A stretch of 64,000 bases of DNA, the filler included, from Jimgerdemannia flammicorona (taxonomy: Eukaryota), in the NCBI GenBank assembly GCA_003990765.1. It is 3 parts of 3 records of this genome, joined end to end, with 100 filler letters (N's around TTAATTAATTAA, not from the genome) between each part and the next. Parts side by side here need not be neighbours in the genome. Positions count along the whole stretch, not along the records: positions 43,245 to 64,000 come from RBNJ01001595.1; 2 more parts are not named here. One strand, written 5' to 3'. The notes beneath the pieces are model-generated. The model had not been told where the DNA came from. It was given only the letters and a program-made list of their open reading frames with translations, and ran no database searches. The position numbers and the translations under genes are program-made. How positions within the stretch are numbered: position 1 is the stretch's first letter; each line of letters starts with the position of its first letter. Of this stretch, positions 25,101 through 57,932 are shown piece after piece.

Positions 25101-25278
25101 AGCACTACTAGTATTATAGCATCTGTTGAGTATTCTGAGATAAATATTAGGCAGGGTGGCCCTAGTACATTTGAGTAACAGTATGTGGAGAGGAGCAATA
25201 GCTTGGGGGGAAGCATGAGGGGCTTGCTGGCAGAAGGACATAGAAGGAGAGGGGGCAGTGTTAGAGGACAGGAGACAG

Positions 25279-31912: not shown

Positions 31913-34900
31913 GAGATCATAGATATTGAGTTTAGGGTCTGGGAGAGTACCAAATTCAGGACTGGAGATGTGGACATCAGGGTGTAGCTGGCAGGTAAGG
32001 AGAATATGAGGAAGGCAAGAGACTGACTGGCAGTTCTAAAGTGGGGCCCTGTGAAATATAAGGTCTTATAAATGAAGGAGATGCTGAAAGAAGAAGAGAA
32101 CTTGCTGGAGATATAAGAGAACCTTGCTGGAGCTATTGAGAGGAAGAGATTAGTCTGAAAGTTATATAAGGCCAAGACAGTTGTGGAGATTGTCAATGGC
32201 AAGAGAGTGTGGCTAGATCAGACAGTCTGGGAGTGAGCACAGAGAAGGCAGATTCGGAAGAAGTTGTTGGTGAAGTTGAAAGGGGGGACAGTAGGGGCAG
32301 CTATAGTTAAAGATACTGGTTTGAGAGTAAGTATCTGGGTAGAGGAGAAGGGGGTAACTCTGGAGGTACTCCAGGGAGCAGAAGGTAGCTCTAGATTGAG
32401 TGTGGTTGTGGAAGATATAGAGATGGTCAAGGGGGAGCACTCTCAATATAGAGTGCTGAGTGGGGCTACTGGTGTAAAGGAACTGTAAGATGTACTGGAG
32501 GAGGATTGGGATAAGTCAGTGAGATGGAATACTGAGAGAGGGCAGGCCAAGCAGGTGAAAAGGGTGCCTAAGAGAGTTGAGAAGGCTGTGGACAAAGTGA
32601 AGTAGCTGTAGAAAATACTAAAGAATATAGTAGTAGAGAAGCTGGGTGGGGAGGACTTTCAGATACTAAGTGAGAGGTACTGTGGTAAAATCCTATATTG
32701 TGAGAAGGTGCTGAGGAAAATCTGTGATGAGATAATAATAGCACTACTGGAGGCTGAGACCTATCAAGTAAATGATGACAGGGAGACAGTGCTTAGAGTG
32801 ATTGCAAATGAACACATAGCTTATATGTGGGGTCTGAGAAAGGGGCTGAAAATATGACAGATAGTGTGTAAGGAGTACTGGTTGGAGATAGAGACTGTGG
32901 ATAGGGTGGACTGTCAGGAGATCTTGGTGATACTGGATGCTCAGCAGAGAGAGCCAGACAAGATTATGACAGAGAGAAATTGGGTCTTACAGATGATGTG
33001 ATGAGTATGGAATTATAGAGTAGATTTAATATAAATAGTATAATAGAATATTCTTTTTAAATATTAATAGACTGAGGGGTGTAATGAGAAGACAGAATAT
33101 CTTTAGCTAGTTGAAGGGGCTAGATGTAGATCTTTTCTTACTATAGGATGTGGGTTATAATATAGACTTAGACTTACTGGACTAAATGAGGTAATGGGGC
33201 AATACAGTGGTATAGCAGAGTTAGGTGAGCTTTCTGGTCAAGAAGAGAGTAGAGGATATTAGGGACATTGAACATTGGGGGAGCTAACTAGTGTAGGGAG
33301 CTAGGTGGGAGTCCTCTAACTGTAGAATCATGCTATTGTCTAGCAGAAAGAGGAGAGCAAGTGGATTGGGTCTGGAGTTTGTGAGGGACTAGTGTTCTGG
33401 TAGATATAGGGATTGACTGTCTGGGGAGTGACATTAATATGATATGTGATAGTAGAATAGATAGGACTAATAAAGAGAGGGGCATAGCAGGCAGGAGTAG
33501 AGAGATGGAGGACTGGAAGGAGATTGAGAGACTGAGTTCTTTGGTAGATGCTAGATATCTGGAGTGGGCAGATCATAGAGTCTATACTCACTGGATGACT
33601 GAACTGGAATTCCAGATAGACTGAGTATTGACAGCTGAGTGCTGAGGTATAGATGTCTGGAATTGAGATAGTCTAGTGCTTTTGGTAAGACCACTGAGGT
33701 TTGCTAGACAGAAGGAGGTTTGGGGGTAGTGGAGAGGACTGGGACATTAGTACCTGAATACTACATTACTGGGAGATAGTGTCTTGTGGGGAGAATGGGG
33801 GATAGATATTAGTACTAAGGTTGTTGGCTGGAGAACACAGGGGTTGGAGATTGGGAATCATTATTAGTAGTTGAGATCTGATACTCAGCAGTATTGAGGT
33901 GAAGCTGGGAGAAAGAGAGGGGCCCAGTAGAGGCAGCATATTAGATGAGCTTCACAGAGACTAGTGAACCTACTGGAGAGGTGGGCTGGATCATTAGAGG
34001 ACTGTAGAGTAGAGAACTAGAGAATTTAGAGGATCTAGTAGGAGATAGAAGAACTGAAGGAGCTGCTTAGACAGGAGGAGGAATTGTAGGTGAAAGGGCT
34101 GGTAGTTTGGCTGAGATGGCAGAGTATGGAGGAGGGGGAGCAGTCTATTAAATTTCTGTCAAAGCTGATATAGGTGAGGAGGACAAGGCAGTAGTGGGAA
34201 GGAGTATTGGATGAGGTAGGGGTTATAGCAACTGGGACATCAGAGATCTTGGACCAATTGTGGTCTTATTGAGAGTAGCTATAGAGTGTGGAGAAGTGGA
34301 GAGAAGATGTCCTAGATATTGAAAGATAGCTAGATGATTGGCACCCAGACTGGGTCTGGGCAAACTTAGAGCTCTGGTGAGTGTAGAGGAGATATGTTAG
34401 GTCTTAGTGATGATAAATATTGAGATGTCCCTTAGAGAGGATAGGTTGCTTTGGAATTTTTGGAAGAAGATAGCTGATATTGAGGTTGTGTTAGAGGAGA
34501 TGGTAGTGTGATGAGATCATCAGCTCAGAGTCCAGAATTAGAGGACAACACCTGGAGCTTATAGCTCTGCTGTATAAGAATAAGAGAAGAAGAGAGGATT
34601 AGAAGAACTGGAGGCTGATCATGTTTCTGGATATGGATCATAAGTTGGTGATAAAGATTTTAGTGATCAGACTACAAGAGGTTGCTCAGTAGATACTAGG
34701 GGCTAAGTAGAGGGGCTTTGTCAGAATTTGGTTAATTTGAGATAGAACAGCATGGGTCTATAGTATTATTGAGAGTACTTATATAGCTGGAGTTGACAGT
34801 CAACTAGTCTTTTTAGATCAAGAGAAGACATATGATAGGGTTTGATATATATGGCTAGAGGGAGTATTGAAGTAAAAAGGGGTTCTCCCAGAGTTCAGAA

Positions 34901-35440
34901 TATTATTAATTTGTCTATTAGAGAAGCGTCAGGTGGCTATTATGGTGAATGAGCACAGGAGAGAGTCCTTTACCCTAGATAGAGGAGTACTGTAAGAAGA
35001 TCCACTATCATCAATTCTCTATACCCTCTTATTAGAGCCCTTATTAGATAGGATTTGGTATAGAGTTGAGGGTTTGAATATTTTGGGAGTGAACTAGAAG
35101 GTTGGGGCCTTTGCTGATAATATAGTAGTCAGGCTGAGCTCTGTGGAGGATGTGATAGTACTGAAGAGTATTGTGAAATAGTATGAGAGGGGTTTGGGTA
35201 CTAGGCTCAATTGGTATAAATATGAGCCTCTGGCCCTAAGTAAAGGGATAGTTAGAGGCAATGTGATCAGAACAGTGGTCCCAGATATTGAAGCAGTCCA
35301 CTACTTATAGATTAATTTTTCAGTATATGGTTCCCTGTTGACTCATAGCTAGTAGAAGCAGTAGCTACTTGCTTGGGAAAATATTCTCTTGCAGTAGTGA
35401 GGCTAGTATATCTCTCTGACAGAGAGAGTGATAGTACTGA

Positions 35441-38400
35441 TATACCATCTTTCTCTAGTAACATTCAGGATATACAGATCTCAAGCAACTCTCAAGACAT
35501 CATTTTTGGAGAAAAGATATTAACAATATGGTGACTGATGAGTATTCTGAGGTTTATACTAGGCAGGGTGGCCTGAGTGTATTTAACTGGCAGTATGTTG
35601 GATAGAGCCATAGCTTGGGGGAAAGCATGAGGAGTTTGCTAGCAGGAGGACATAGAAGAAGAGGAGGCAATAGGAGTAGACAGGGGTCTAAGAGGATGAG
35701 CTTTGCTGATAAGATGAAGAGAGATAGATCAATAATGATGACTGGGCTGGAGGGCTGACTAAGAAAGGACAAGAAGACAGAGAGGGCTATAGGTTCTGAG
35801 AGAGCAGTCTAAAGAGGCAAGAGCAGCAGGGCTGGAGGAGTAGTGGCTAGGGAGAGTGGGACTATTGATGGAGGGGAAACTGCTAATCTAGAAAATAATT
35901 CAGATATAACAGTTAATGGGGGATCTGGACATAAGGTCCAGAGACCTGGCAGATGATATAATGGGGCTAGTAGTGACTCTACTACTTAAGAAATCAAGGT
36001 CCAAATATACTATCACATTGTGCTTCTGAGGCTTAGTGGTCATGGCAAGAATGATTCTGGGAATTCTGGCTCAAGAGGTGAAGGGGGTTGCCTTGGTGAA
36101 GTTTTTGAAGAAATAGAAAGGAGTAGAAGTCAGCTTTGAGTAGGAGGAGATAGTGTTAAAGATAATAGAGAAGAGAGTGATAGTGGGGGGAGGGTAGTGA
36201 TCTCTATGGTATGGTGCTTATACTTAGATTCTCAAGGGGTACAGTTGATGGTACTGGATATGCCAACCATATTAAAGGAGATGGCCAAGGGGTTGATTGT
36301 AAAGACTGTTAAGAAGTATAGAGAGATTATGAATATACAGCCCTTTCTCCACTACCTTACTGGTCACAAGATTTGGTAGGCAACCTTCTGAGTCCCCTTT
36401 CCCCTATTATTACCCCCTCTACCTCGGGTTGGTTTGCTGTGCCTGCAGGGGCATGGTGGGAGGAGGGCAATGGTGATGAGTTACCCCTTTATCAGTGTTG
36501 GATTGATGCTTCCTCCACTTTTTCGCAAATTCTGGTGCCTTCGGCTGCATCTGGAGTGTACCCATTTTGGTGCAGCGCCTTCTTCCTTTTGCCATCACCA
36601 ACAAGGTGTTGTCTCGGTGTGTCTTGGACTACGTAGGGAGTCAGCCGACCTTGGGCATCAAGTGCTGAGTGTAGGTTACCTGCAGGTTCTCAGTGTCTGT
36701 AGTGGGGCCCTCTGGCTTTGGCAAGCTTCCCAGCAGGCATGGTTCTGGCATAGGTAACTGCTTTTCAGGTGTTGTTGGGATGGGAGGGGAGATGACTGTC
36801 ACAGATAGGCGGAAGGGCGATAATGGTGAACCAGTAGGGTGCCAAGCTGGGGGTGGTCATCGGGGCTAGGGCAAGCGCTGCTTCGGTAGGGCCTTTTGAT
36901 TGGTGTGGCACAGTTAGATAGTAGGTGTCACTATCAGCTTCTTTTGGCGGTCAGCAGGGTTGGGCCCCAGTCATTAGGGGGGGGTCAGGAGGCCTGAGGC
37001 TACCCATTTCAGGCATCTTGACTGCACTCAACAGGAACCAGGAGCTGATATAGCAATGTGATCAAGGCCAACAGGCTTGAGTAGTGGGGTATTGGGGGTT
37101 TCCGCCCACCTCACATGTAAGTCCTTTACTCACCTCAACTGGGAGAACCAGGCCCTACCCACCATGTTGTGCTTTGATGAGGGTTTTTTATTTGCCTGTC
37201 ATTCTCTTTAGGGTGGCAGAGGCTATTCTATTCGGCTCAGGCATGGCCTTGTACATACGTTGGGTTCTCAGGTGTGCGCTTTCAGTTGTTGGTGTATGGT
37301 TGGGTTTCCCCTGGTGGTAGGGAGAGCATGGTGCACAGAATGAGGTGCAGGCATATCAGCCCTGCTGCACCTGGCATGGTCGAGCTGCTGGACAATAGCT
37401 AGCCTAGGTTAATAGGGGGGCAGTGCTTGGTGGGTGGTGGGGGAGGGTTTTGTCCTATATAGTCTAGGTTCCCTTCTAATAAAAATCCACGGGACATGAG
37501 TCCATTAAAAAAAAAAAAAAAAAAAAAAAAAGAGATTATGAATATAGATTTTAGGGTCTGGAAGAGCACTGAGTTCAGGACTGGAGATGTGGACATCAGG
37601 GTGTGGCTGGTGAATAAGAAGAATATAGGGAAGATAAGAGACAGGCTGGCAGTTCTAAAGTGGAATCCTGTAGATTACAAGATTTCATAGATGAAGAGAA
37701 TACTAGAAGAGGAAGAGGACTTGCTAGAGGCATTGGAGGACCTGGCTGGAACTGTGGAGAGGAGGAGATTGATCTGAAAGGAATATAAAATCAAGATAGT
37801 TGTATAGATTGTCAATGGCAAGAGAGTGTGGTGGGATCAGGCAACCTGAGAGCAGGTATACAGAAGGCAGATTCAAAAGAAGCTATTGGTAATAGTGAGA
37901 GAGGGGATGGTGGGGGAGACCACAGCTGAAGATGTGGGTTAACAAGCAAGTGCCTGGCCAGGAGAGAAGGGGGTGACTCTTGAGGCACTCCAGGGAGCAG
38001 AAGGTGGCTCTGAGTTGAGTATAGTTAGAGATAGTTGAAGGAGAGCACTCTCAGTATAGAGTACCAGTGGGGCTACTGGTGAGGAGAAACTACAGAATGT
38101 TCTGGAGAAGAATTGGGACAAGTCAGTGAGACAGAATACTGAGGGAGGGCAGGCAGAGGGGGTGAAGAGAGTGGTCAGGAGAGTTGAGAAGACTGTGAAT
38201 GAAGTAAAGTAGCTATAGGAAATACTAGAGAATGTGGCAGCAGAGGAGCTAGAGGGGGAGGACTTTTGGGTGCTAAGTAAGAGATATTGTAAAATCCTAT
38301 ATAGTAAGGAGATACCAAGAAAAATCTGCAATGAGATCATAGTAGCACTCCTATTAAGTAGATGATAACAGAGAGGCAGTGCTTAGAGCAATTGTGAATA

Positions 38401-41400
38401 ATGATGTGGCTTATATATGAGGACTGAGGAAGGGGCTGGAAAAGTGGCAGATAGTATATAAGAAATACTGGTTGGAGATAGAGACTATGGATGGGCAGAC
38501 TGTTAGAAGATCTTAGTAGTACTAAATACTCAGTATTGGAAGACAGATAAGATTACAGTAGAGAGGAACTTGGATCTTATGGGTAATGAGATGAGTATGG
38601 AATTGTAGAGTAGGCACTTTCTCTCAAAAAACATTATTTAATAAGAATAGTACAACTGGAATCTTCTTTGAATATCAAAAAACTGAGAGGTGCAATGAGA
38701 TAATAGAATATTTTTAGCTAGTTGAAGGGACTGGAGGTGAATCTTTTCTTATTACAAAATGTGGGTTATGATGTAGACTTAGAATTACTGGACTGGATGA
38801 GGAAATAGAGCAGTACAGTAGTATTGTAGTATCAAGTGGAGGGGATATTGGGGACATTGGACATTGGGTAAGCCAATTGGTATAGGGAGTGTGGAGGAGG
38901 CTGAGTTGGACTCTCCTGACTGTGAGATTATACTATAGCCTGGTGGAAAAGAGAGAGCAAGTGAATTGAGTCTGGGGTCTGTAAGAGGCTGGTGTTTGAT
39001 AGATGTGGGGATCAACTCTCTAGTGGAAAACTTTAATATAATATGCAATAGTAGGTTGGATAAGACTGATGGAGGTAGGGGTATGGTAGGCTGAGGTAGA
39101 GGGATGGAGAACGGGAAGGAGATTGAGAGACTGAGTATTTTGGTGGATACCAGGTAACTTGGATAGACAGATCTTAGGATCTATACTCACTGGGTGACAG
39201 GACTGGGATCCTGAGTAGACTGGGTATTGATAGCTAAGTGCTAGGGTGTAGTTATCTAGAGTAATATTGAGATAGTCTGATGTCCTTTGTCTGATCACTG
39301 GGGGTTGCTGAGCAGAGAGAAGTTTGGGGATAGTGAAGTTGGACCTGGATACTAGTGCCTAAATACCACATTGCTGAGGGATTGTACCTTGTGGGAGAAT
39401 AGATAGAAAATATTAGCACTAAGGTTGTTGGCTAGAGAGTACTGGGGTTAGAGATTGGGGACCATTGATGATAGTTATAATTAGATACTCAGAGGTATTG
39501 GGGTGAGGCAAGAAGAGAGAGAGGGGTTCAGCAGAGGCAGTATATTAGGTGGGCTTTATAGAGACTGGTGAATCTACTAAAGAGATGGACTGGATCATTA
39601 GAGAACTGTGGGATAGGGAACTAGTGGATTCTAAGAATCCAGTAAGAGATGAAAGAACTGAAGGGGCTGCTTAGACAGGAGGAGAAATTGCAGGCAAAAG
39701 GACTGGTAGCTTAGCTGAGATGGTAGGGTGTGGAGGAGGGGGGGCAGCCTACTAAATTTCTGTCAAGACTGCTACAGATAAGAAGGACAAGACAGTAGTG
39801 AGAAGGAGTGTTGGATGAGGTAGAGGAGATGGATACTGAGACACTAGAGATCTTGAGCCTATTGTGGTCTTACTAAGAGTAGCTGTATAGTAAGAAGGAG
39901 AGGAGAGAATTTGCCCTAGACATTGATAGGCAGCTGGAGGATTGACACCCAGATCTGACTGTGGGTCTGGACAAACTGAGATCTCTAGTATATAGAGAGA
40001 AGATGTGTTAGATTTTGGTGACAATAAGTAGAGGATGGTCCCTAGGAAGGATGAGTTGCCTTCAGATTTTTGGAAAAAGATAGCCAGTATTGAGAGTTTG
40101 TTAGAGAAGATGGTATTGATGTGTGATGAGGTCATCAGCTTAGGGTCCTGGATTACAGAACAGCACCTGGGGCTTATAGTGCTATTATATAAGAACAAGT
40201 GGAGAAGAGAGGATTGGAAGAACTGGAGACCAATTATGCTTCGGGATATAGATTGCAAATTGGTGACAAAGATTTTGGTGGCCAGACTTCAAAGAGTGGC
40301 TCAGCAGATACTAGGGGCTGAGTAGAGGGGCTTTGTTAGAGCCTGGTTGATTTGTGATAGAATAGAATACTTCCACAGTATTATTGAGGATGCTTGTATA
40401 GCTGGAATTAACAGTTGACCAGTCTTTCTGAATCAAGAGAAGATATATGACAGAGTTAGGTAAATATAGCTAGAGGGAATATAGAAGTGAATGAGAGTTC
40501 CCTCAGGGTTCAAGAGATCATTGATTTATCTGTTCAAGGAGAGTTGGGCAGCTATTATGGAGAATAGACACAGGGGAGAGTCCTTCTCTCTGGGCAGAGA
40601 AGTGCTGTAGGGAGATCCACTCTCACTGATTCTCTATACTCTCTCATTAGAGCTCTTATTGGACAGAATTTAGTACAGAGTTGGGGGTTTGAATATTTTA
40701 GGAATAAACTGGAAGATTGGGGCCTTTGCTAATAATATAGTAGTCAGGCTGGACTTAGTAGAGGATGTAGTAGTACCAAAGAGTGTAGTAGAATAGTATG
40801 AGGGATGTTTGAGAGCTAAGCTCAATTGATATAAGTATAAAACTCTGGTCCTAGGTAGAGGGTTAGTTGGAGGCAATGTGATTGGAATAGTGGTCACTGC
40901 TAGTGAAGTGGTTTACTACTTGGGAATCTATTTCTCAGTATATGGTTCTCTGCTGTCTTATGGCTAGTAATTATTAGCTTTGTGGAATGTTCTCTTGAGG
41001 TGGAGAGATCAGTATATCTCTCTGGCAAAGAGAGTGATGGTACTGAATGTGTACTGCCTGCCAAAGCTATAGTATATTGGATATCACTTGGACTTTTCAG
41101 TATAGGTGGTCAAGAGACTATTAAAGATAGCCAGATCATAGATTTGGGTAGAGTGGCAGAGCCAGATCAGTTTAGAGATATTGATATTGACTGTAGACAG
41201 AGAGATAGGCTGGATCTGGTGGACTTCACTAAGTATCTACACTGCTTGAGAGTATGGTGGCTAAAGTGAGTGAGCAAATTACAGAGTCAAGAGTGAGTGC
41301 TCCTTATGTAGATTGTGTGGAAAGTTCAGTGCTCTCTCTGAGCCAAGACTGGTGACCTGCTCTCTATGATAGCTCTCAAAGGAAGTTAGAAGATATACTA

Positions 41401-42364
41401 TAGAGGATTCAGTTGGAGAGTGGTTAGTAGTATCTACCATATTGATCTCTAGTAGAGGGGGGATGAGGTGGAGGAGGAGTGGAGACTACAGATGTAGAGG
41501 TGGGACTACCTACTGCTAGGAGATACACTGGTGGAGAATTTTTAACTAAAAGATGGCATAGAATTTCTATGAGAGTATGAGGGAGATTTGTGGCCAGAGG
41601 TATAGCAGGGGGTAGAGATTGGTGAGGAGTGGGACTGGAATAGCATTTGGTCTTGATATAAGCAGATAGTGATTAACTCTCTTCTAAGTTCTGGGCAGTA
41701 TGGTGATAGATACTAAGGCATAATATAATGCTGAACTATTGGTCAAGACACTTAGTAGAAGGGAGTTATTTGGAGTGTGAGAAGTATCTGGATATTGGAT
41801 AGGTGGGGGGTATAATACAGATCTCTGAGTATTAGCTTAAAGAGTGCAAGATTCTGGGAGATTTCTGGAGAGTCATTGAGGACTAGCTAGAGTTGTAATC
41901 TTTGAGGAGAGGAGAGGGTGGGAAGTGGGGTGATCTCGGGCATAAGGTAGTGTGAGGAGTTGAGGATGAGTGGTTGACTTTCAGATTGGCTCTGATTGTT
42001 TAAGTTGGGCTTACCAGATATTGACTCTATATATTTGAGGATAATCAATGATTGGTAGTTGGGGTAAGGGTTATATGATGGGAGTGACTGCTACTTGATA
42101 TCTTGAACAATTGATAGTAGGAGTAGAGACAGAGAGTGAGAAGCCATAGGAGGCTTGTGTAATATATTTACAAGAAGAGTAGGAGGAGAGTTAGAGTCAC
42201 TAGGGAGTTGGTAACTCTCTGGAGAGATAGAGAGAGTTGGAGGAATGGGGGTCTATATAGGATTGGGTGAAGGGTGGGCCAGTTCTCTATATTCATATAA
42301 TATAGATTAGATGGCAATTAGTAATAAAAGTAGAAGTCCAAGTAACTATAAAAAAAAAAAAAAA
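35441..42364 (+). mobile_element. LINE copy C, full length, nested in ORF2 of LINE B
   Basis: Has the same 5' motif and the same 3' end (gtcca.gtaactat + poly(A)) as copy A, plus KNWRPI and GDPL motifs. A degenerate 14-bp TSD is agtgatagtactga (35427-35440) / agtaatgatactga (42365-42378). Confidence 0.85.
36338..37530 (+). mobile_element. 1.2-kb retroposed insertion (poly(A) + TSD) in LINE C ORF1, not obviously homologous to the host LINE
   Basis: A perfect 16-bp TSD agagattatgaatata lies at 36322-36337 and 37531-37546. AATAAA at 37478 is followed by poly(A) at 37507-37530. Confidence 0.85.
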
Positions 42365-43144
42365 AGTAATGATACTGAATGTATACTAGCAACTGAAGCT
42401 GTAATATATTGGACATCACTTGGACTTTCCAGCATAGGTGGTCAAAAGACTATTAAAGATGGCTAGATTATAGATTTGGGTAGAGCAGTAAAGTCAAATC
42501 AGGTGAGAGTTATTGATATTTTCTATAGATAGAGATAGACGGGGCCTAGTGAACTTCACCAAGTATCTATACTACTTGAGAGTATGGTGGTCAAGGTGAG
42601 GGAGTAAATTGAGGAGTTGAGAGTAAGTACCTCTTATGCAGAGAGTTTGGGAAGTTTGGTGCTCTCTCTAAGAAATAACTGGTGACCTGCTCTCTCTGGT
42701 GGTTCTCAAAAGAAGTCAGAAGATATGCTATAGAGGATTCTGATGAAGAGTGGTAGATAGTACCCACCACATTGATCTCTGATGGAGGGGGGATAAAGGG
42801 GAGGAGGAATAGAAACTGTAATTGTGGAGATAGGACTATCTACTATTAGGAGATATGCTGGTGGCAGCATGTCCTTTCACCCATAACATTCGGGTGACAC
42901 AAGACTCAGACAACACTCTTTACTATGTTTTTGGTGTCTGACAACTATCAACATAGATGGCAACAATCGAACTGGTGAGCATACTGGCCAGGGAGGAGAC
43001 AGCACCTTTGGCTGACAGTAGGTGGAGAGGAGGGGAGATGGTTTGGGGATGCCGGGGGCTTCAATGGCTAGCCAAGGTCCTGGTGGTGGAGGGAGGGGCA
43101 GTCTGAGGCAGAGAGGAGGGGAGAGGTTGACCTTTGCTTTTTTT

Positions 43145-43244
43145 NNNNNNNNNNNNNNNNNNNNNNNNNNNNNNNNNNNNNNNNNNNNTTAATTAATTAA
43201 NNNNNNNNNNNNNNNNNNNNNNNNNNNNNNNNNNNNNNNNNNNN
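43145..43244. other. Assembly gap with artificial TTAATTAATTAA linker
   Basis: N run with a central linker. Confidence 0.95.
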
Positions 43245-46200
43245 AAAAAAAAAAAAAAAAAAAAGAGGTATGAGGTTATCTTCAACACCAGCACCTCGGA
43301 GAATTGCATCCCGGAACATGTGGCCAAAACTACGGGAAGGGCAATCAAGTCTACCAACCTTGTTGTAAGCATGGCAAATGGAACCCTACACTCGTACAGA
43401 ATGATAGAAGGACTCAGGGCAAGGATCGGTGCTAAGGAATACTTGCTCGATGCTATTGTCTTCCCAGATACCTTGTTAGCAACCATCTTAATTGGCATGG
43501 CTTGGTTGCAGCCACAAGGTGCTCACATCCACTTGGACACCATGCAATTAGTCCTAAGGGATGGCAATAGCATTCCAGTATGGACTGGAGTCCAATTAAT
43601 GTGGGCCGAAGGCATCGATGAGGATGATAGTGGAATGGACAACACCTCAGATGAAGAAGACAATGAAGAAGGTGACAAGCAGGTGCACGCCATGATGATG
43701 AACCTAATAGGCCCTGATCTGGATAAGGAACAACTGTATGACCTCACGCTTGTACTAGGTGATGCCCTGTTCACTAACAGGGTAGAAGATTTCAGGCATT
43801 GTAACCTTGTCTAACATTGCATATATATAGGCAACATGGTCCCGATTAGACAAAAGGCATATAGGCTTAGCCCATGGAAGAAAGCCTTTATATAAGAAGA
43901 ATTGGAAAAATTAATAATGCTCAGGGTAATACAACTATCAGAGAGTCCCTGGGCCTCCCCTGTCATCATTCTGGACAAGAAGGATGGAAACTTACAACTT
44001 TGCGGTAATTTCCGGAAGCTCAACCTGGCAATGGTCAAGGATGCATATCCCTTGCCTAGAATTGATGAGCTCTTGGACGCACTAAGTGGAGGCATGTGGT
44101 TCTCAACCTTGGACCTGAAGAGTGGGTTCTGGCAGATCAAACTGGCTCTAGAGAATAGGTCGAAAACAGCATTCATCATGGTGTTTGGACTATATGAATA
44201 CCGGCATATGCCAATGGGTCTCGTGAACTCCCCGGCAATGTTCCAGCGCCTTATGGACCTGATCCTATGACCATACATTGGCAAGTTCATACTGGTCTAT
44301 ATAGATGATATCATCATATATTCAGCAACCTATAATGAGCATATGGAGCATTTAGCTGCTATAATGGAAGCCTTTTGGTGAGCCAACCTTATGCTCAACC
44401 ATAAGAAGTGTTTCTTTACTCAAAAGCAGGTTGCTTACCTGGGACATGTCATCGATGGTGCTGGAATACATGTGGATCCCACCAAAATACATAAAATTAG
44501 CATGTTTCCCATTCCAAAGAACCTCGAGGATGTATGATGGTTCCTAGGAATTGTAGGGTATTATCACCATTTTGTGCTTGGCTTTGTAGTAGTGGTGCAG
44601 CCCCTTATGAAGTTAACATCCCAGATACATACCTTCAAGTGGTTGGAGGATGCGCAGCGAGCGTTTGAGGAATTGCGGAATCATCTGATTCAGGCACCCA
44701 TTCTGGCATACCTACACGATGGGGCCCCCTCTATCTTGCAAATAGATGCCTTGAACTACATGATTAGCTGTGTGCTCACACAGATAGAGATCGACGGTCT
44801 TGAACACCCTGTTGCTTATGTAAGCAGAACCCTAAATGGTGCTGAGCAGAAGTATACAACAATGGAAAAGGAAGGATTAGCAGTCATTTGGAGTATAGAC
44901 CAGTTTCATTACTATTTGGACACTGGTCAGCCTTTTGTCATATAGACCGACCATGCGGCACTCAAATCTATTCTTGCTATCAAAGAATCCAAGAGACATA
45001 TAGCTTGATGGATAGTCAAGCTGATGGCTTACCAGTATACTGTTGAGCTTCACCCAGGTCAAGTTCACTCAAATGCCAATGCATTATCCCGGCTGATAGA
45101 ACCCGAGTAAGAAGAACTAGTGGAAGTCTATGTGGCAAAGAAAAGAGCAGAATATGTAAGTGCAAAGTGGACCCCAGAAATGTACAATGAGACCCTTGCC
45201 AAAATCACCGGTTCCCCATCCAGCCCACTTCTTGCCACCCCAATTCAGAGGAAAATAGGAGAAATAGTCTGGAAGCTCGAGCTCGACCAGCAGACCCTTC
45301 ACTATGTCAAAGATAAGCATGTCTTACCTCATCCCGACCAGGTATCTCCCCTGATAGACTGATTCTACGGGATGGTGCATTTTGAGCTCAAGAATACCTT
45401 GCAGGCAGTGCAACATAAATACCAGTGGCCGGAAATGTTTCAGGACGTACAACGATGTGTAGCCTCCTGTGAAGCTTGCCAGGCATGCACCAGCCCAAAA
45501 AGACATGAGAACTTGATGCCTATTGAAGTGACGGGCCCCTTTGACAGGGTCAGAGTAGACTTCATTGGACCATTGCCACAAACAGACTGTATGAACGCAT
45601 ATATTATTGTCAGCATAGACTATCTTATAAAGTAGGTAGAGGTGTGCACCACCATCGATGCCACTGCCACCACCGCTGCTAGGTTCATATACAAGGACAT
45701 AGTTTGCTGACATGGTTGCCCTGTAATCTTGCAGAGTAACTGGGAGAGCCATTTCATGGGAAATGTTGTCAGCGAGCTAACTGCTCATTTCAGAATCACC
45801 CACAAGTTCACGATGCCATATCACCTCCAGTCCAATGGCCTTGTGGAGAGATTCAACCAAACCCTAAAAGGAGCATTAAAAAGGCTGGTGTTAGAACACA
45901 ACAATGACTGGGATCTACATCTCCCCGCCATTCTTTTTGCATACCGAACCATATCCAGACAACTACTCGCCATTCCCCATTCACACTTATCTATGGGCGG
46001 GAGGCACAGCACTCCTTTGGACCCACTGTCAGTCTGGTTGACAAGCCCTTGGAGGATACCTTAGCAGAGGCTATCCTTAGGCGAGCTGAGGAGGTCACCC
46101 ATCTCGACAAGAAGACTCGTAAGCAGGCCCTTGAGCGAATCAGGAATGAGCAAGTGAAACAGAAGGCTCGGTACGATGCTCAGAGAGTTTGGGGCCTCAT

Positions 46201-46760
46201 TCCGCCATTGGCAGAAGGAGATCTGGTGATGCTGCATAAAGAAACTGCTGGGGCATGGGAATCTCAGTGGGCGGGGCCATATATGGTCAAGATCATCCAC
46301 GGAAATGGCACTTATTCACTGATGGGGCCTGGCAGAGTAGACCTAGAGGCTCCCCAACATGGAAACAGACTCCAGGCATATATTCCGAGGGTGTAGGGGC
46401 TGAATGAGGGCAGATGCAAGAGGATGTGGGCAGAATGGAGTGTGGGAAAGAGCTTAAAGGCAGGTGGCTGAATGGTAGGAGACAAAAATTAGATGCTGGC
46501 AGGACTAGCAAAAGCTGTTATTGGAGGGAATTGGCTTAGATTACTGCCAGAGGAATATTTGTGGACATATAGCAGTCCAAGGAGTGGGTCAAAATAGATG
46601 ACAACAAGGTAGCAGTATAGAGCAGACCGAAACCTATCGAATAAGCTTTTCAGAAGAAAAATCGAGTGCCAATTGGGCCAGATAACCCCAGGTAAAGAAC
46701 AGACCCTTGGTAGCCCACCAGAATGTGCAGACATTTCATTATTCCTCTTTTAGTTAAACT

Positions 46761-46849
46761 AGTATAAATACACGTCGAATACACAACAAATTCTCTTTAT
46801 TCTTGTCAATCCTCTCTCTCTTCTTTCTCTTTTCCTTCGTTATATCATT
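46761..46849 (+). promoter_or_regulatory. Putative internal promoter for the retrotransposon-borne cyclin (TATA box + CT-rich tract)
   Basis: tataaata at 46763 and a pyrimidine-rich tract at 46790-46840 sit immediately before the ATG at 46850. Confidence 0.45.
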
Positions 46850-47908
46850 ATGGCTAACTCTTTGGCATAAGCCCCCCTTTCCTGCTCCTCTTCAACTATT
46901 ATACCATCAACTCTACTCTTTTACCATGCTATCCCAAACCGGGGCACCACAACCCCAGCATCCCCCTTGATGCCGTGCTCAGCTTTTGCCACTCCGGAAC
47001 CCAATAATGGTGGCTCCTCGATGGATTACTCAAGCCACAATAGGTTCTCTCCCTCTGATCTTTATGAAGAAGGAGAAGCGCAACGACCTCTTTGGATAGA
47101 ACCCCATGCTCCGCCCCTCAAGGAAAACCATTACAAGTGATTCTGGTCGACTCCCAGCCACCTAGATAGCATCATCGATCAGCAAGAAAGATATCTGTGT
47201 CGGCAGGAGTATGGATGAAAACTGGAAAGCGAGGCAAAGGGCATCCAAGTCAATATTAGAATAATGCTGATACATAACCCATACACTTGGCACTAATGGG
47301 AGGAAATGTTTTTATGGTTGCTAGTTCTAGCATCCACGTATGGTACAGATCAGCAAATATCGATGTCCTTCGTAGCATTGAATATCCTAGACCAATTCAT
47401 AGCAAGGGGTCCATTGGAAGAAGACCATTATCGAATCGCCAGTGTAGTGTGCTTCAGACTGGCATATAGGGCAATGACCCCTTACCTAGATTGTCATTGG
47501 TCCTCGGAACAAGCAAAAAGACTGCACGACAAACAATACGAGAAGAGAGGAAATGAGGAGGTCTTTCATCAACTGGAGTATGAGATCCTATGACTGTTAG
47601 AATGGCGTTTGGTATCCAAGGCCTCCGCAGAAAGCATCCTCCAGTTCCTGGAGAATGAGCAAGGAATATGACCAGAAGAAAGGCTATATGCCAGAAGACT
47701 AAACGAACTGGCAATCTTCGACCAGAACTTGGCCGAATTCGACGCATGGACCCTGGCGTCATCTAGTCTATACATTGCCAGAAAAGGGAATGCAGGGCCT
47801 CTGACCTCGGATGACCCTTGTTTTCTGTGTCTTCACTGTTTCTCACAATGCTTATATTCCTTGGTGCCCCCCATGGTCCACCGGTGTTATCCACAGTTGT
47901 TCTTGTAA
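46850..47908 (+). pseudogene. Intronless cyclin-fold gene (~352 aa when restored) carried inside the Gypsy element
   Basis: One frame with no frameshift reads EEMFLWLL...FVALNILDQFI...YRIASVVCFRLAYR...QLEYEIL*LLEWRL...ESILQFL...YARRLNELAIFDQNLAEFDAWTLASSSLYIARK, i.e. N- and C-terminal cyclin boxes. The six internal stops are all TAA/TGA, each one C>T change from CAA/CGA. Confidence 0.8.
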
Positions 47909-47939
47909 GGAAGGACACATCCAAAGAAGGGAAGGTGGA

Positions 47940-48455
47940 TGTAGAGGCACGTGGCCAAAAAAATAGGATGCATCCAAATCAGGCAAGAATTCTGGATTCT
48001 GAAACAACATGGAAGAAGTCCTGTTCCATTTCCATTTCTATCGGTAAAGCACTCTAATTACTCAGTGGAGCATTCCAGACACTTCTTGGGGTTCATAGAA
48101 GTATATGGAGAAAGATTACTCAGTATTTCTAGCAGTTTCAAGGATAGGAGGGCTTCCATGTATAAATAGCGTAGGCTCAAGCATGCAATAAAGGACAGAG
48201 TTAGTTCAGTAAGAGAATCGGAATTTATTGAGAATTGGCAACTAGAAGCGCATATCCTGAGAATTCGTAGATCTAAGAATTCGGTGTGCAAGCGGTCGTT
48301 TTTCAAGCCTTCCGAGAGGTTCTTCCAACACTTTACTTAGCGAGTTCCCTAGCAAACGCATCGCGATTACCACACACCCTTTCAATCTACAACCAGTCCA
48401 ATTACCACCCCTTTGACAGTCAAGTGATTTCAGGTGGAAACTGCTGAATTTCACA
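47940..48455 (+). repeat. 3' LTR (~516 bp) of the Gypsy element
   Basis: The polypurine tract aaagaagggaaggtgga directly precedes TGTAGAG. Internal tataaata (~48162) and aataaa (48187) are present. It ends in TTTCACA exactly where host-gene homology begins (cctgc, 48456). Confidence 0.75.
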
Positions 48456-48794
48456 CCTGCAGGGGTCGCACTTGTCAAAGCCACCGCAATTGCTGAAACC
48501 ATGGATGAGGCTGCAGGGTCCGCAAGGGTCGCACTTGTCAAACCCACCACAATCGCCGAAACCATGGGCGAAGCTGCAGGGCCTGCAGGGATCGCACTTG
48601 TCGAAGCCACAGCAGGTGTCGAAATTGCAATTGTCGCCACACCGCTTCTCCGCGGCACCGTTGAGGCAGCGAGCATCAAGGGTGAGTGCCTGGGGTTCAG
48701 TGCTGGAATTAGGGATGGGTTTGGCGACACTGAGCTGGACGAAGAGGACCTGGACAGTGAGGGCGAGGAAGACAATAGTGGATTGCTTGGCCAT
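48456..48794 (-). pseudogene. Secreted Cys-rich protein paralog, 3'-truncated by the Gypsy LTR
   Basis: MAKQSTIVFLAL...EKRCGDNC...GFDKCDPC is near-identical to 50833-51570 up to the LTR junction, then reads into the LTR to a stop at 48420. Confidence 0.85.
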
Positions 48795-49019
48795 TTTGTA
48801 AATGTTTGTGTTGGTGGGAAGTGTTATGGAGAAGAGCTGGAAGAAGGTTCTGTGAATGGATGTGTTGCAGGAGTCAACTAAGGATAGAAAGATGATATGT
48901 GAATGCTCTCTTATACATTCAAATTTTCTGACCAGCAAGGCACAGCGTCCGCTCTCATCAAACCTAGGCAGGGTACATTTACATCTATAAGATTTGTTGA
49001 TGATTCAGCTGTAAATCTT

Positions 49020-50021
49020 GTTGTGATTGTGTGAAGCTGTACTATTTCCATAGGTAAAACAAAGTTTGCCAGACGATGTGTGCACATAATGATTTAGAAG
49101 GCTGTTTTAATCAACATATCATCACGGTATTGATGCGCTAAGGGTGGGTAATTTTTGTGAATGCAGATTACTCTTTACGCCTAAATAATTTAAACGCCAA
49201 GTTGGCTATTACGTGATCCTGAGCACCTGAGCAACGGCTGTGAGACATGTTCTCTAGACGGCCTGTCAGAAGGTCCATTTATTAACCTGTGCTGAATGGT
49301 GCCTGATTTTTTTTTTTTTTTTTTTTTTTATCCATTTTGCTTATACAATGAATTTATTAGGGTCAAGAAATCAGGTTGCTTGAATTGCTTGAATACGATG
49401 CCGAGGCGCTTATCCCATAGTATACTACCTGCACAATGAGTTTGTAACTCTTAAAAAAACAAAATATCATCCACTTCGTTATTTTGGTACGCCAGGCCGT
49501 CACATAATTAACTATCCGCGAATTGTTGACCACATTTTTGTGGCAATGCAAGCATTGAACAGAATTACAAGGGTTCAGCTTGACATCAAGCCTGGACTCT
49601 AAGTTAACCAGATTTTTTGAAAGGTGTTTACATTTTTTTTTTTTTTTTTTTTTTTTTGGTACCCAAAATTTTGGCCGAAATGAATAAATGAATAAACCGC
49701 CATTGAATGGAAAAGATGGCAGAACACCGTGATTGTGTGAGACTGTGCTGTTTCCGTAGGTAAAACAATGTTTGTCAGACAATGTGTGCACATAGTGATT
49801 TAGAAGGCGTTGTTAATCAACATACCGTCACGGCATTGACGCGGCAAGAGAATGCAGATTACCCTTTACGCCTAAATAATTCAAACGCCAAGTTGGCTAC
49901 TCTGAAATTATAATATATCCAAAGGTTATTACGTGATCCTGAGCACCCGAGCAATGGCTGAGACATGTTCTCTGGACGGCCGGCACTTGTCGGCTGTCAG
50001 AAGGTCCCTGTGCTGAATGAT

Positions 50022-50053
<32 letters not shown>

Positions 50054-50470
50054 CTTATGCGTTTTGCTTACACAATGAATAAATAGTACGGTGAGGCTGG
50101 GCGCGGAAGGGTACTAATCTCCAATGTTTGAAGAAATTTATTGGAGTCAAGAAATCAAGTTGCTTGAATTGCTTGAATATGGTTCTGAGGCGCTTATCCC
50201 ATAATACACTCCCTGCACAATGCGTTTGGACTCTTAAAAAAGAAAATATCATCCACTTCGTTATTTGGTACGCCAGGCCGTCGTCATATAATTAACTATC
50301 CGCGAATTGCGATCACATTGTTGTGACAATTGACATCAAGCCCGGACTCTAATGTTAACTAGATTTTCGAACTGCTTTTGCTCCGTGCCTAATTTTATTT
50401 TATTTTTTTTTTATTTTTTTCTGGTGCCCAAAATTTTGGCTGAAATAAATAAATAAATAGACTGCCCTTG
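49020..50470. repeat. Direct duplication of upstream non-coding sequence (~49020-49700 vs ~49725-50470); also similar to 51790-52470
   Basis: Shared blocks include taggtaaaacaa, acgtgatcctgagcacc, tcaagaaatca and ggtacgccaggccgtc. Confidence 0.8.
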
Positions 50471-50832
50471 AGTGGAAATATGGCAGAATACGAGGGTTAA
50501 TATAAAAAAGCCATTCGGGGCTGCGTATATTGTAAAACTGTCTCGGGATGATACATTACCGCATCGCCCACAAGGGTATATTCAACGTCCTCCTCAACTA
50601 ATGCCAAGCGAAATAGTAAATTTGGAATCGAGAAAATTTAGCCATTGTTTTTCATAAAGGTTTTACTCATTACAAAAATGCATGGTTTCGATGATGGTGT
50701 TTATTATTATTTCAATCTGAAAAGCGCCAACTATGATATGCCGGATTTATGTACAACAATCAATCTCGCACAGTGGGTGAAGTCTGCCTTGCCTATCTAC
50801 ATATTCAACCTTCGTTGTCGAGTTTACGCCGT

Positions 50833-51570
50833 TCAGGCGATATTAACGAAGCTCTTGGCTACATTATCATCGCTGCAAGCATTCTTGTTGGCACAGTACG
50901 CGGTGTCACTGTCCTTGCACACACTGGCAGCCGCGTGCTCGCAGTTCTTGAAGGCTACATTGTTGCAGCATTGGTTCGTGTTGTCGCACACCGTGTTTGA
51001 GCTCACTGCGGATGGGCCGCACGCACCGCATGCGCCATTGCCATAGGCGCCATATCCGTAGGGGTACCCGAAATCGTAGCCGCTGCCGTATGGATACCCG
51101 AAGCCACTGCCGTAGGGAATTCCGCCTCGCTTCTGCTTGGGGAGGTTGCGCTTCTTCAAGCAACACGTGCCGCAACCGCAAGGGCATGCGCCACGGCCGC
51201 AAGCCCCGAAACTGTTACAACCATCGCAACTTCCAAATCCTTTGCAATTGCCAAGTTCTTCGCAGGGAAAACCACAAGCACCGAAACCATGGACGAAGCT
51301 GCAGGGCCCGCAGGGATCGCACTTGTCAAAGCCACCGCAAGTGCCGAAACCATGGACGAAACTGCATGGTCCGCAGGAATTGCCACAGCAGTCGTCGAAC
51401 TCGCAATTGTCGCCGCACCGCTTCTCCACAGCGCCGTTGAGGCAGCGAGCGTCAAGGGTTGGTGCCTGGGGTTCTGTGCCAGAATTGGGAATGGGTTTGG
51501 CAGTGCTGAGGTGGACGAGGAGGGCCTGAGCGGCGAAAGCAAGGAAGGCGACGGTGAATTGCTTGGCCAT
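50833..51570 (-). CDS. Secreted Cys/Gly/Tyr-rich protein, 245 aa, intronless, with dibasic (Kex2-type) sites
   Basis: Hydrophobic signal peptide, GPCSFVHGFGxC repeats, KR/KKR sites, a GYPYG-rich segment and an Asn/Cys-rich C-terminus. Two paralogous copies lie nearby. Confidence 0.85.
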   Translation of the reverse strand: MAKQFTVAFLAFAAQALLVHLSTAKPIPNSGTEPQAPTLDARCLNGAVEKRCGDNCEFDDCCGNSCGPCSFVHGFGTCGGFDKCDPCGPCSFVHGFGACGFPCEELGNCKGFGSCDGCNSFGACGRGACPCGCGTCCLKKRNLPKQKRGGIPYGSGFGYPYGSGYDFGYPYGYGAYGNGACGACGPSAVSSNTVCDNTNQCCNNVAFKNCEHAAASVCKDSDTAYCANKNACSDDNVAKSFVNIA

Positions 51571-53329: not shown

Positions 53330-53487
53330 CACGGGTGGGGAGGGAGTTGCGGTTGGGGAGGGGGTTGCAGATGGAGTTACAGATGGGGAGGGGGGGTTGC
53401 GGGTGGGAGGGGGATGGGGAGGGATTACAGGTGGGGAGGGGGTTGCAGTTGGGGAGGGGGTTGCGGATGGAGAGGGAGTTGGGCAGC
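53330..53487 (+). repeat. G-rich 18-bp minisatellite (gggagggggttgcagatg-like), G-quadruplex-prone
   Basis: About 8 imperfect copies are visible. Confidence 0.75.
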
Positions 53488-54193: not shown

Positions 54194-55199
54194 TAAACGT
54201 TTTTTTTTTTTTTTGCTTTTTATTAATTTATTATTACAAACAACTTAAAATTTTGTGCTCCAGATGACTTCAGGTATGACCAACATAAACTCGTGCAAAG
54301 CGTAAAGAAGATCCAAGAAAAAGATAATACATTTACACGCACAGTGGAACGACACGGCAGCAAAGAATGCTATCCTCAATGATTCACCTCCTATCTGCTT
54401 CGCTTCGTCAAATCACGGAAAATACGGACACCATTGAGAGCGGCAAACACAACCAATGGAAGGTGCAGGACGATGAGTGGTTCCTAGGGGAAGAATTTGG
54501 TCATTTGGTGACACTTTTGATCGCCAAGGCAAATTGGTTGAGGTGTTCATTGTAATAATAGAGGTTCAATGGAGAGGAAGATTTGTATGCGTTTCTTCGC
54601 ATGTGAATCTGCAATGGTTTGATTTGATCGCATTTGCTACGAGCTTCTTTTTGGAGCCATTTGTTGCTTTTCAATGACCTTGTGTGCGGGATTTAATCAC
54701 TGGTTAACATGCGACGTGCTGGGGACAGTTGGGATGTCGTGAAGATATATTGCGCAACTTATCAAGTTTAGGCAATGCTTTAACTTTGGCCAGAGAATAA
54801 ATGAGAAAGTGAATTATATGGGTAATTCACAACATTTCCAACCCCTGCCCGAATCAACCATTCCTGACATATTTACTAGTTGTATTCGATTGACACCTGC
54901 CTGTTTGTTCAAATTTGCACTTTGGTTGATTGTCCGATTGACAGTTTTGCCAATTGTTCGTTTGACCAATTGTTGGACTGTCTACTGGTTTGGCCGATTG
55001 TCGGAGTGTCCACTCATTTGACGGTCACTCGTTTGAAGCATCCACTTATTTGACCAATTGTTGGATTGGCATTCATTAGGCTTGGCTGTTGGACAGGCTA
55101 CAGATTCGGAGGGAAATATTTGTGGAGAGTAAGTGTTCATGGAGGAGAAGTACATATTTGTAGTTTAGTATTTGCAGAGAGGATATATAGCAGTTTGTA

Positions 55200-56150
55200 G
55201 AGGGGGGGAAATAAATTGAAAATTCAAATATATGTTCAGTGTCTAAGTTTGTGTCTACAAAATATAGTTCAAGTTATAAAGTTTATATCTGCAAAATATA
55301 GTTTGAGTTTATATATAATATACTTCTATGAACAGATCTCTAAATTTTGTAGATTTTTGACAAATATATCTAAAACTAAATATATATATATAATATAAAA
55401 CTACAAATTATATAGTTTAAAAGAAATTATAAAAGTAGTCTTAGAGATATCTTTTAACTTAATTTAAATCTAATGATATCTAGATATGATATTTAACTTA
55501 ATAAAAAACTTAGTATTCTTAAGTATATCAAAGGTCTGATTAATGGGAGATAGTAGATATTAATTCTTATATATAAGCTTATTGAGTATATAGTAATTTA
55601 TATATATTTATAGGGGGGGTTTTTTTTTTTTTTTTTTTTTTTTAATAAATAAGAATAGTGAGTTATAAAGTAACTTGCTTGATTAAATGGCTTTATAGAC
55701 TAGTAGTTATTTTAGTTTTTTCTTAACTATTTTTATTTTAAAAAATAATATATAGTATATATTTCTTAGATAGTATAGTTCTGAGATTAATTTAATTTTA
55801 TAATCTACTTTTTATATAAATTATAAGTCAGATAGCTTATCTGGAAAAATATCCTTAAATTCTTCTAGTAGTAACTAAATATTTTTATTAATTAATAACT
55901 TTTATCTTACTTCTTAAATTAGATAATAGTAACAAAAGTATATATTACTTTCTTAAGTATATTTTTATACTATATTATTAAGAGAGTAATAATCTGAATC
56001 CTGTTTATAGATTTATTTAACTTAGTGATAATATTGATCTCTTTTTAAAGTAAAGTAACCTCATTCTTGTACTAATTAATCTATAGACTATATATAATAT
56101 ATAAGTTAAAATTTTTCTAAAATCAGATCATAATATTCTAGTAATACAAT
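55200..56150. other. AT-rich decayed repeat block
   Basis: CpG-free, TA-rich, no real ORF. Confidence 0.65.
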
Positions 56151-57932
56151 CTTGAAGCCTACTTGTTTCCAGTATTTCTGAATTTTGATAGTATATACTT
56201 CCAATACACAGTGCAGTGTCAGCTAGACAGATTTTTCCGAGATTACTCTGGGTATGGATATTCTGATACCAACTCTTTTTCCTGAATCGCCAGAACCCGT
56301 TCATAGAGCTTTCTGCCTCATCATGTGTGCGTGTCATGGCATCGCGAACGACCGTTTGCATCACGCGGTGAATTGAAAGTATATAACTAATTATTTGGAC
56401 AATGCGTTTGCGGTCGATAATTCTACGTGGTGGTCCGTCAAACAAACGACACGGCCGGCGGGAAATTCGATCTGCTCGAATGTCTCTCCCAGGGTCTTGT
56501 AACTGGTTGCAAAAGCTTAGAGAATGGATTTCGTAGGAACATCGAGAGAAAATCGAAGCCGAGATCGTGAATTCTCTGATAGGTTCATCAGCCTGTATCA
56601 TCGGAAGGCTCGCTAGCGATACCTTTTCGTGAAGTGTTTCAGTACGGCCGTACTTCTATATGGGCGGATGGTTCGGACTTGTAGATTCCGTCTCTTTCAT
56701 CCCGGCCAAGAAACTCGAGCATTTTTTTTTTTTTTTTTTTTTGGTATATTTCACAATTAGCCGATTTGGCTTGACGCTTTGGATCCCCTTTATTCCATCT
56801 CAAATTTGATTGAAGTTTGACTAAATAATCAAGTTATTTTGGTTATAAACTCAGCTATTATTAATCATATCCTTCTTCCCAATGTTTTTACGTCGCCTCC
56901 GTCGCAGGGGATGTACCCGTGCGTATCGCAGTGATTGTACAAGCGACAGCTGACCACGGTCATTCTTCACATCAGTCAACTTCTCTCGGACGGTTATTCC
57001 CGACGGACTGGTTCGCGTATTATACAATGGCCAGGTCGGGAAGGGTTCACCTGTGGGATATCGACACCGTAGACGCTTGCCTCTTGTTGATGCTTGGCGG
57101 AGAGATGGAGGGTTACTGTTTCAGTGGAAGGAATCGCTTTTTTCCTTCGCTGTTGAATACCTTTTTTTTTTTTTTATTATTCCTTCCGATCACACCACAA
57201 ACAGCGCCGCATTGGTGTTGACCATTAAAGTCAGGTGCCACGCGTGCTTTACGAATATTGAAGATTATATTATGGTACCTATTATATTTTATTTTCTCGC
57301 TTGTAAGTGCATTGGATATGCTAGATCATAGTCTGATTTGATTAAATTTTTTATCCAAACTTCAGAGTGTGATAACTCAATGAAAACACATCTAAAGTAA
57401 TATTCTTTATTGCATTGAATTCACTGAAGTCCAATAAGCTAAAATTTATTAAATTTGGACACACTTTGGCCGAGTTGAATTTCTTCAAATTGAACTTTTG
57501 AATTGAATCAAATTGAACGATATAGATAAAATTGTTACATATAATGGAGTACATACTGCAGGAGTTCGCAGCAAGGCCGTGAGTCACTTACACTTCAGAC
57601 TTTGCAATTGCCATTACACAATTACACTCTTCTCCTCCACACAGCGCTATTCCGACTTCAACACTCCGAGAGCGAAGTCAGTCCGGCGCACAAGACGAAC
57701 GACATCCAAACTTCAGAACTTTAGAACTACGGAACACCAGAATTACAGGTCAACGAACTCTGTGGCCATAAGATTTCCGTAGTTCCAGAGCTCCAGAAGC
57801 AGTTCCAATTGAAAGCGCGCGCAGACCAAAACTTTAGTTTCGTCGGGTTAGTGGTTTAATCATGTGGTTTTGAGCATGTGACCTCTTATTGATAATATCC
57901 TAAATCGCCACTCCATACGACACTTGAGATCC

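Follow-up and report, generated by a model that had tools for sequence, protein, structure and literature searches.

Within a 64,000-nucleotide stretch of DNA from the early-diverging fungus Jimgerdemannia flammicorona (assembly GCA_003990765.1), hereafter the window, we examined the remains of a Ty3/Gypsy long terminal repeat (LTR) retrotransposon and a cyclin-like open reading frame (ORF) that lies behind its pol gene. The window consists of three contigs, joined at 21527-21626 and 43145-43244 by 44 N, a 12-base linker and another 44 N; the linker places a stop in all frames, and features are not readable across the joins. The element lies on the third contig (RBNJ01001595.1). Here, protease, reverse transcriptase (RT), RNase H and integrase are followed on the plus strand by a spacer of about 454 bp, the cyclin ORF, a polypurine tract (PPT) and a 516-bp unit that begins with TG and ends with CA (Table 1). 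The simplest reading of this order is a single insertion, pol - spacer - cyclin ORF - PPT - 3' LTR, that abuts a host gene. Because the contig opens inside pol at 43245, gag, the primer-binding site and the 5' LTR fall outside the window. The opening coincides with the start of the element's protease domain. A run of 25 A (43245-43269) opens the contig directly 5' of that domain; it is probably the point at which the assembler broke off, and it could mark the gag-pol junction. Scans of this contig for tRNAs and Rfam families gave no match.

Table 1. Features of the element and its surroundings, in window coordinates.
Feature	Position	Strand	Remarks
Contig join	43145..43244		N44-linker-N44; the element's contig begins at 43245
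Ty3/Gypsy pol, decayed	43266..46396	+	11 in-frame stops, one frameshift near 45960
Aspartic protease	~43263-43511	+	gag-asp_proteas
RT	~43983-44453	+	Pfam RVT_1, E 1e-40
RNase H	~44640-45032	+	Pfam RT_RNaseH, E 1e-29; RT_RNaseH_2
Integrase zinc domain	~45375-45488	+	Pfam Integrase_H2C2, E 2e-9
Integrase core	~45792-45878	+	rve_3
Spacer	46397..46849	+	non-coding; TATA-like box ~46762-46771, CT-rich tract ~46795-46840
Cyclin-like ORF	46850..47908	+	intronless, 352 codons, 6 internal stops, no frameshift
PPT	47923..47939	+	16 of 17 purines; TG directly after, at 47940
Putative 3' LTR	47940..48455	+	516 bp, TGT...ACA ends; TATA-like near 48160, AATAAA near 48188
Host gene 1	48456..48833	-	secreted, Cys-rich, 63-bp (21-residue) repeats; cut at 48456
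Host gene 2	50836..51570	-	complete paralogue of gene 1, 245 residues; reference for the empty site

The gene upstream of the cyclin ORF is recognizable by its domains as a Ty3/Gypsy pol: protease, RT, RNase H and integrase follow one another in the Ty3/Gypsy order and in one frame (Table 1). A chromodomain is absent from it. The C-terminus, up to the TAG at 46394-46396, aligns colinearly with the termini of the closest homologues, which indicates that pol is complete at its 3' end. Where its stops fall in conserved columns, we read them as transitions, many at CpG. TGA codons occupy columns that hold arginine in six (X581), five (X815) and four (X424) of six homologues, and TAG codons occupy a tryptophan column (X790, five of six) and a glutamine column (X560, two of six).

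Downstream of pol, the cyclin-like frame runs from an ATG to a TAA (47906-47908) and is interrupted by internal stops at 46868 (TAA), 47138 (TGA), 47216 (TGA), 47294 (TAA), 47591 (TGA) and 47669 (TGA). Counting the terminal one, 7 of its 353 codons are stops, against 11-19 in the other five frames over the same span, making it the most open of the six. The ORF shares its frame with pol, and we considered and rejected a fusion of the two: of the 152 codons that separate the cyclin ATG from the end of pol, seven are stops. The spacer that separates them matches no Pfam family in any plus-strand frame. With its TATA-like box and CT-rich tract, it may have served as an internal promoter and leader.

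An earlier, sequence-only reading of this DNA had described a Ty3/Gypsy pol ending at 46396, a single intronless frame with these six stops, cyclin-box peptide strings in its translation, a TATA/CT-rich leader of its own, and an ORF end about 15 bp before the PPT. All of these we recovered, the stop ending at 47908 and the tract starting at 47923. Its further argument, that all six stops are of the C>T type, carries no information, since a T>C change at the first base turns any stop codon into one for glutamine or arginine. Rather, the informative part of the stop pattern is the excess of TGA (four of the six internal stops) together with CpG depletion.

The frame is very probably derived from a cyclin, because several independent and individually modest tests agree on one family and one colinear region. 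With stops read as X, residues 142-254 match Pfam Cyclin_N (E 1.4e-3, 18.8 bits, profile positions 23-126 of 127) and residues 276-317 match Cyclin_C (E 0.089, 13.2 bits), in the correct order; the two cyclin boxes span approximately residues 142-254 and 276-335. A phmmer search of 1,835,955,588 representative proteins returned a single protein at E<=1e-3 (E 1.5e-4, 26% identity, residues 173-347 aligned to 92-262). This protein, XP_069250215 of Calcarisporiella thermophila, is itself a clear cyclin (Cyclin_N 2.8e-31, Cyclin_C 6.4e-13) that comes closest, among proteins of solved structure, to cyclins B1 and A2, and a pairwise BLASTP comparison with the frame gave E 7e-12. When we aligned the frame by hhalign to a profile of 16 cyclins (the Calcarisporiella thermophila protein and 15 relatives), the probability was 91% and the E-value 9e-7. 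Conversely, a hidden Markov model (HMM) of these 16 cyclins, built without the frame, matched nothing in the window other than the frame itself (E 7e-6; two overlapping chunks of the 258 six-frame chunks scanned). Finally, the longest stop-free piece (98 residues) was compared by the language-model Atlas, and 30 of its 30 neighbours fell in the Cyclin_N set (top score 0.92, 191 of 256 features). The cyclin origin proposed in the sequence-only reading is borne out by these results. The N-terminal part of the frame, about 140 residues, gave no match. It contains a KEN tripeptide at residues 92-94, to which we attach no weight, since a few percent of proteins of this kind would have one by chance.

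The frame is colinear with the Calcarisporiella thermophila cyclin from the second helix of box 1 onwards, box 2 included. Conserved box residues of cyclins that serve as CDK (cyclin-dependent kinase) contacts are Arg and Asp of helices 1-2, Lys of helix 3 and Glu of helix 5. Among the cyclin-box residues of the frame, Asp181 and Glu243 are kept, the Lys is replaced by Arg207, and Trp150 stands in the helix-1 Arg column. Compared with fungal cyclins, the frame thus retains the Asp (LD.F against VDRY), the Glu (Q.E) and many hydrophobic core positions, but it has lost the helix-1 Arg and Asp, keeps only 18 of the 53 columns that are invariant among its 16 nearest cyclins, and differs further in being intronless, in lying in mobile DNA and in carrying six stops. 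Its identity to the best match is 23-26%, whereas cyclins of another phylum share 39-45% identity with that match. The strong divergence of the protein predates its decay.

The right end of the element is fixed by a break in a host gene, independently of any LTR pairing. Gene 1 is 66% identical to gene 2 over residues 1-119 of the latter; there the homology ends, and gene 1 lacks the last ~126 codons that gene 2 has. At the DNA level, gene 1 and its array of 63-bp repeats begin exactly at 48456, so that all sequence to the left of this position is foreign to gene 1. The base before it is the last A of the ...ACA end of the putative LTR; element end and host-sequence break therefore coincide to the base (48455|48456). 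The target of the insertion is gene 1, which encodes a small secreted Cys-rich protein. Neither host gene matches a Pfam family, and an Atlas search with gene 2 gave no usable match. Between the two tandem paralogues (49023-50478) lie direct repeats of 700-780 bp with poly-T runs of 25-31 bases.

At its other side, the 516-bp unit starts directly after the PPT. This PPT-plus-TG site lies 14 nt past the cyclin stop and 516 bp ahead of the host-gene breakpoint, and it is the sole 17-nt site of such quality within 46380-48455. Sites of the 15-nt kind occur on the plus strand at a background of 6 per 20.7 kb, which puts the chance of finding one in a 30-nt span at roughly 1%; between the pol stop (from 46380 on) and 47290 there is none. 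The putative LTR contains no Pfam family. A 23-nt direct repeat with 78% identity between its copies (47912-47934 and 47965-47987) spans the PPT and the start of the LTR and may be due to chance. Thus, of the earlier placement of the cyclin frame between the end of pol and a PPT with 3' LTR, the order, the strand, the PPT with its TG and the breakpoint at 48455 hold up. We consider it likely that the frame sits in inserted DNA, on the same strand as pol and inside an LTR element.

The state of decay of the two genes can be compared directly. For pol, the ratio of observed to expected CpG ranges from 0.18 to 0.46, compared with 0.47-0.61 for the cyclin frame and 0.29-0.83 for the LTR; it approaches 1 beyond 49.4 kb. 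TGA and CGA codons stand at 6:5 in pol versus 4:2 in the cyclin frame (Fisher p 1.0), and stop densities are 11 in 1045 versus 6 in 352 codons (p 0.40). These tests fit joint decay and have little statistical power. The earlier claim that the frame decayed together with the element is upheld in part: stop density and TGA:CGA ratio are indistinguishable from those of pol, but the CpG depletion is milder and graded. Codon composition separates the frame from its host surroundings. Its third positions (A.295, C.263) are pol-like (A.253, C.271) and unlike those of the five ORFs in the window that we took as host genes (A.07-.25, C.26-.57), a reference set of five in which the ORF at 10212-12038 may itself be mobile DNA. 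The loss of about 30 CpGs cannot explain this difference between the cyclin frame and the host genes.

The best explanation of these observations is one dead Ty3/Gypsy copy, inserted in a Cys-rich protein gene and bearing a third, intronless ORF of cell-cycle-type cyclin descent. In the mechanism that we propose, the reverse transcriptase would have switched templates onto a host transcript and so picked up the cyclin, which would explain both the absence of introns and the position just before the PPT. For a time, the element would then have retained the cyclin as an accessory gene, with expression driven by the TATA/CT-rich spacer or coming from a subgenomic RNA. Long residence in the element would explain the extreme divergence (26% identity or less to any known cyclin) and the pol-like third positions. 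The product would have bound a host CDK, either pushing the cell towards S phase, with its deoxynucleoside triphosphates and nuclear access, or boosting transcription from the LTR. Silencing by CpG methylation would have come last, followed by decay of the whole insertion. Taken as a whole, an accessory cyclin gene of a Ty3/Gypsy element, of host-transcript origin and with a product that bound a host CDK, seems to us evenly poised between right and wrong. Regarding its parts, it is plausible and somewhat doubtful that the ORF was a functional, propagated accessory gene. More doubtful is the broader proposal that a Ty3/Gypsy family of an early-diverging fungus encodes a cyclin of its own, under its own promoter, that was kept long and commandeered a host CDK. 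That the ORF acted through a host CDK we regard as unlikely.

A number of findings weigh against this account. Both Pfam scores lie under their gathering cut-offs (18.8 against 23 for Cyclin_N, 13.2 against 22 for Cyclin_C), so that the Pfam check suggested with the sequence-only reading returned the expected domains in the expected order at scores below the curated thresholds. A phmmer search of the PDB with the frame had no match at E<=10. AlphaFold2 gave mean pLDDT values of 37.9 from the single sequence, a model that we dropped as unusable, and 48.9 from a 17-row cyclin alignment; the models are all-helical and of low confidence, only residues 260-335 reaching a pLDDT of 70-86, and the structure prediction thereby yielded the helices and not a confident cyclin fold. 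Foldseek found nothing at E<=1e-3. Together with the few invariant columns kept (18 of 53), these results could mean that the frame is no cyclin at all and that a helical protein resembles one by chance or composition. We find this scarcely credible, given that independent methods converge on one family and one colinear region and that the only match in the entire protein library is a cyclin with strong Cyclin_N and Cyclin_C domains. Moreover, 44 of the 46 listed Foldseek rows are CDK-cyclin entries (E 0.05-0.35), though the model behind them leaned on a cyclin alignment.

Other findings concern the link between the frame and the element. The data hold a single copy, and since the contig starts inside pol, the 5' LTR, primer-binding site, gag and target-site duplication are all outside it. 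A second copy of 47909-48455, of the spacer or of the cyclin ORF was not found within the window. The LTR end given in the sequence-only reading may have been picked because the repeat starts there, in which case the breakpoint is not fully independent of it, and a misjoin of the contig is conceivable. The cyclin frame has lost fewer of its CpGs than pol, and the depletion tails off without a sharp step at 48455; because of this gradient, the CpG loss may have arisen by methylation spreading over a neighbour. One could hence regard the frame as an unlinked host pseudogene beside a Gypsy copy truncated at its 3' end, with the PPT and the TG...CA unit arising by chance and the break of gene 1 at 48455 caused by a deletion, a duplication boundary or an assembly chimera. 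The lack of an LTR pair, target-site duplication or second copy in the window, the milder and gradually fading CpG depletion and the fragmentary assembly would all suit such a pseudogene, as would the TATA-like box 5' of the ATG, which would not travel with a captured mRNA. It would, however, demand three coincidences: that the true 3' LTR was lost directly after an intact pol end, that the host-gene break happens to end on ...ACA, and that the region's best PPT-plus-TG site falls by chance 14 nt past the cyclin stop. The frame is also intronless, lies on the strand of pol and decays in the same pattern, and 1.84 billion proteins include no close orthologue of it. A pseudogene without connection to the element is in our view very unlikely. 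Three further arrangements found no support. A long LTR reaching from the pol end and containing the ORF is disfavoured by the absence of a PPT-plus-TG site in 46380-47290 and of supporting repeats. The ORF has no flanking inverted or direct repeats of the kind that a separate, nested transposon bearing the cyclin would leave, and there is no poly(A) tail past the stop, just an A7 run near 47957, as would be left by a processed pseudogene made by a long interspersed nuclear element (LINE).

The remaining doubts concern how long the cyclin stayed in the element. Further copies with the same pol-cyclin-PPT-LTR order, which the sequence-only reading proposed to look for, did not turn up in any of the protein, metagenome, viral or prokaryote collections searched. 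For the cyclin frame, none of 446 candidates scored in a homologous-protein search reached E<=0.01, and none of the pattern matches in metagenome contigs (113), viral contigs (1) or prokaryote genomes (136) was confirmed; for pol, 8 pattern matches in metagenome contigs likewise gave no confirmed one. A close relative of this pol was not found, the nearest proteins, metagenome proteins among them, being 41-44% identical and that of Rhizophagus clarus 38%. None of eight distant Gypsy loci from IMG/VR (28-36% identity) carries a cyclin. This is what one would expect if a host cyclin transcript or read-through had been caught once and was dead on arrival, in a family that otherwise lacks the ORF. 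The structural evidence (pol, breakpoint and PPT) applies equally to such a one-off event, and gene capture by LTR elements and retroviruses is well established. Against it, the ORF is whole, has its own ATG and stop, and fits neatly into the interval from the intact end of pol to the PPT. Its divergence exceeds what the loss of about half the CpGs explains, all the more when measured against a best match that is so much closer to cyclins of another phylum, and its third positions resemble pol and not the host genes of the window. We therefore judge a single, stillborn capture quite unlikely and prefer the accessory-gene account.

Cyclins borne by viruses occur in a few fish retroviruses, gammaherpesviruses and giant viruses, and we know of no cyclin in an LTR retrotransposon. 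A search of the full-text literature, with subscription journals and Repbase-type catalogues outside its scope, found none either. By logic, the closest analogue would be the rv-cyclin (orfA) of walleye dermal sarcoma virus and the walleye epidermal hyperplasia viruses (Epsilonretrovirus), followed by the herpesviral v-cyclins. The rv-cyclin is expressed from spliced accessory mRNAs of viruses that possess env, and it acts with the transcription kinase CDK8. Like it, the ORF described here would be a highly diverged cyclin-box protein of a reverse-transcribing LTR element, encoded 3' of pol near the 3' LTR. Unlike it, the ORF lies in a Ty3/Gypsy (Metaviridae-type) retrotransposon without env rather than in an exogenous complex fish retrovirus, and its nearest relatives are cell-cycle-type cyclins rather than partners of CDK8; the likeness is one of description, drawn without sequence comparison. 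The v-cyclins of Kaposi's sarcoma-associated herpesvirus (KSHV), herpesvirus saimiri and murine gammaherpesvirus 68 (MHV-68) are likewise host-derived cyclins on a mobile genome and drive host CDKs. They differ in belonging to DNA viruses and in being D-type, clearly host-similar, functional and conserved, whereas here we have a single decayed copy. A mechanism by which a processed host coding sequence would come to lie inside an LTR element is offered by retroviral oncogene transduction and by gene capture in plant LTR retrotransposons such as maize Bs1. In such captures, element genes are usually replaced or gene fragments taken up, in contrast to the complete pol and whole ORF seen here.

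By position, the closest systems would be the ORFs that other LTR elements carry in the env slot, between pol and the PPT/3' LTR (PMC5408684, PMC13524379, PMC10309623). The env-like genes of errantiviruses and Athila, the ORF3s of bdelloid rotifer elements and the accessory protein of Cer1 occupy the same slot on the same strand, and none of these is a cyclin.

If the broader proposal of a cyclin-encoding Ty3/Gypsy family is right, the retroviral and herpesviral cyclins would have their first counterpart in a retrotransposon. Cell-cycle hijacking would then have arisen in intracellular retroelements too and not solely in infectious viruses, and the list of genes able to occupy the env position would be wider. 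Retrotransposition of the yeast Ty elements depends on the state of the cell cycle, and an element with its own cyclin would show, in a direct and testable form, how a genomic parasite adjusts its host's cycle from within. Even as a one-off capture, the locus would represent a clean transduction of a whole gene by a fungal LTR element.

The rest of the window contains several further features. In the second contig, about 18 kb (25000-43144) are very strongly biased between the strands, with a GC skew of +0.26 to +0.53 and slightly more A than T, and have an observed/expected CpG ratio of 0.10. LINE-like reverse-transcriptase remnants lie in its plus frames, along with a 1.33-kb direct repeat (41027-41493 versus 42359-42823). 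This region, with its one-sided lack of C, looks like a stack of heavily decayed non-LTR elements. AT-rich islands with a G+C fraction of 0.18-0.29 and almost no CpG occur at approximately 14000-15000, 22000-24000 and 55045-56244, in surroundings of 40-60% G+C. A long plus-strand ORF at 16735-19092 encodes the C-terminal half of a protein kinase domain and Sel1 repeats (E 3.6e-24), and is adjoined by high-GC ORFs without a family at 19670-21493 (minus strand) and 10212-12038 (plus strand). Sel1-repeat kinases are linked to the Mucoromycota and Glomeromycota; this ORF, the nearest cyclin and one of the nearest named pols are weak hints that the host is probably a fungus of that sort. Lastly, an 18-bp G-rich tandem repeat of 8.8 copies (53336-53481) forms part of an ORF whose end weakly matches a methyltransferase.

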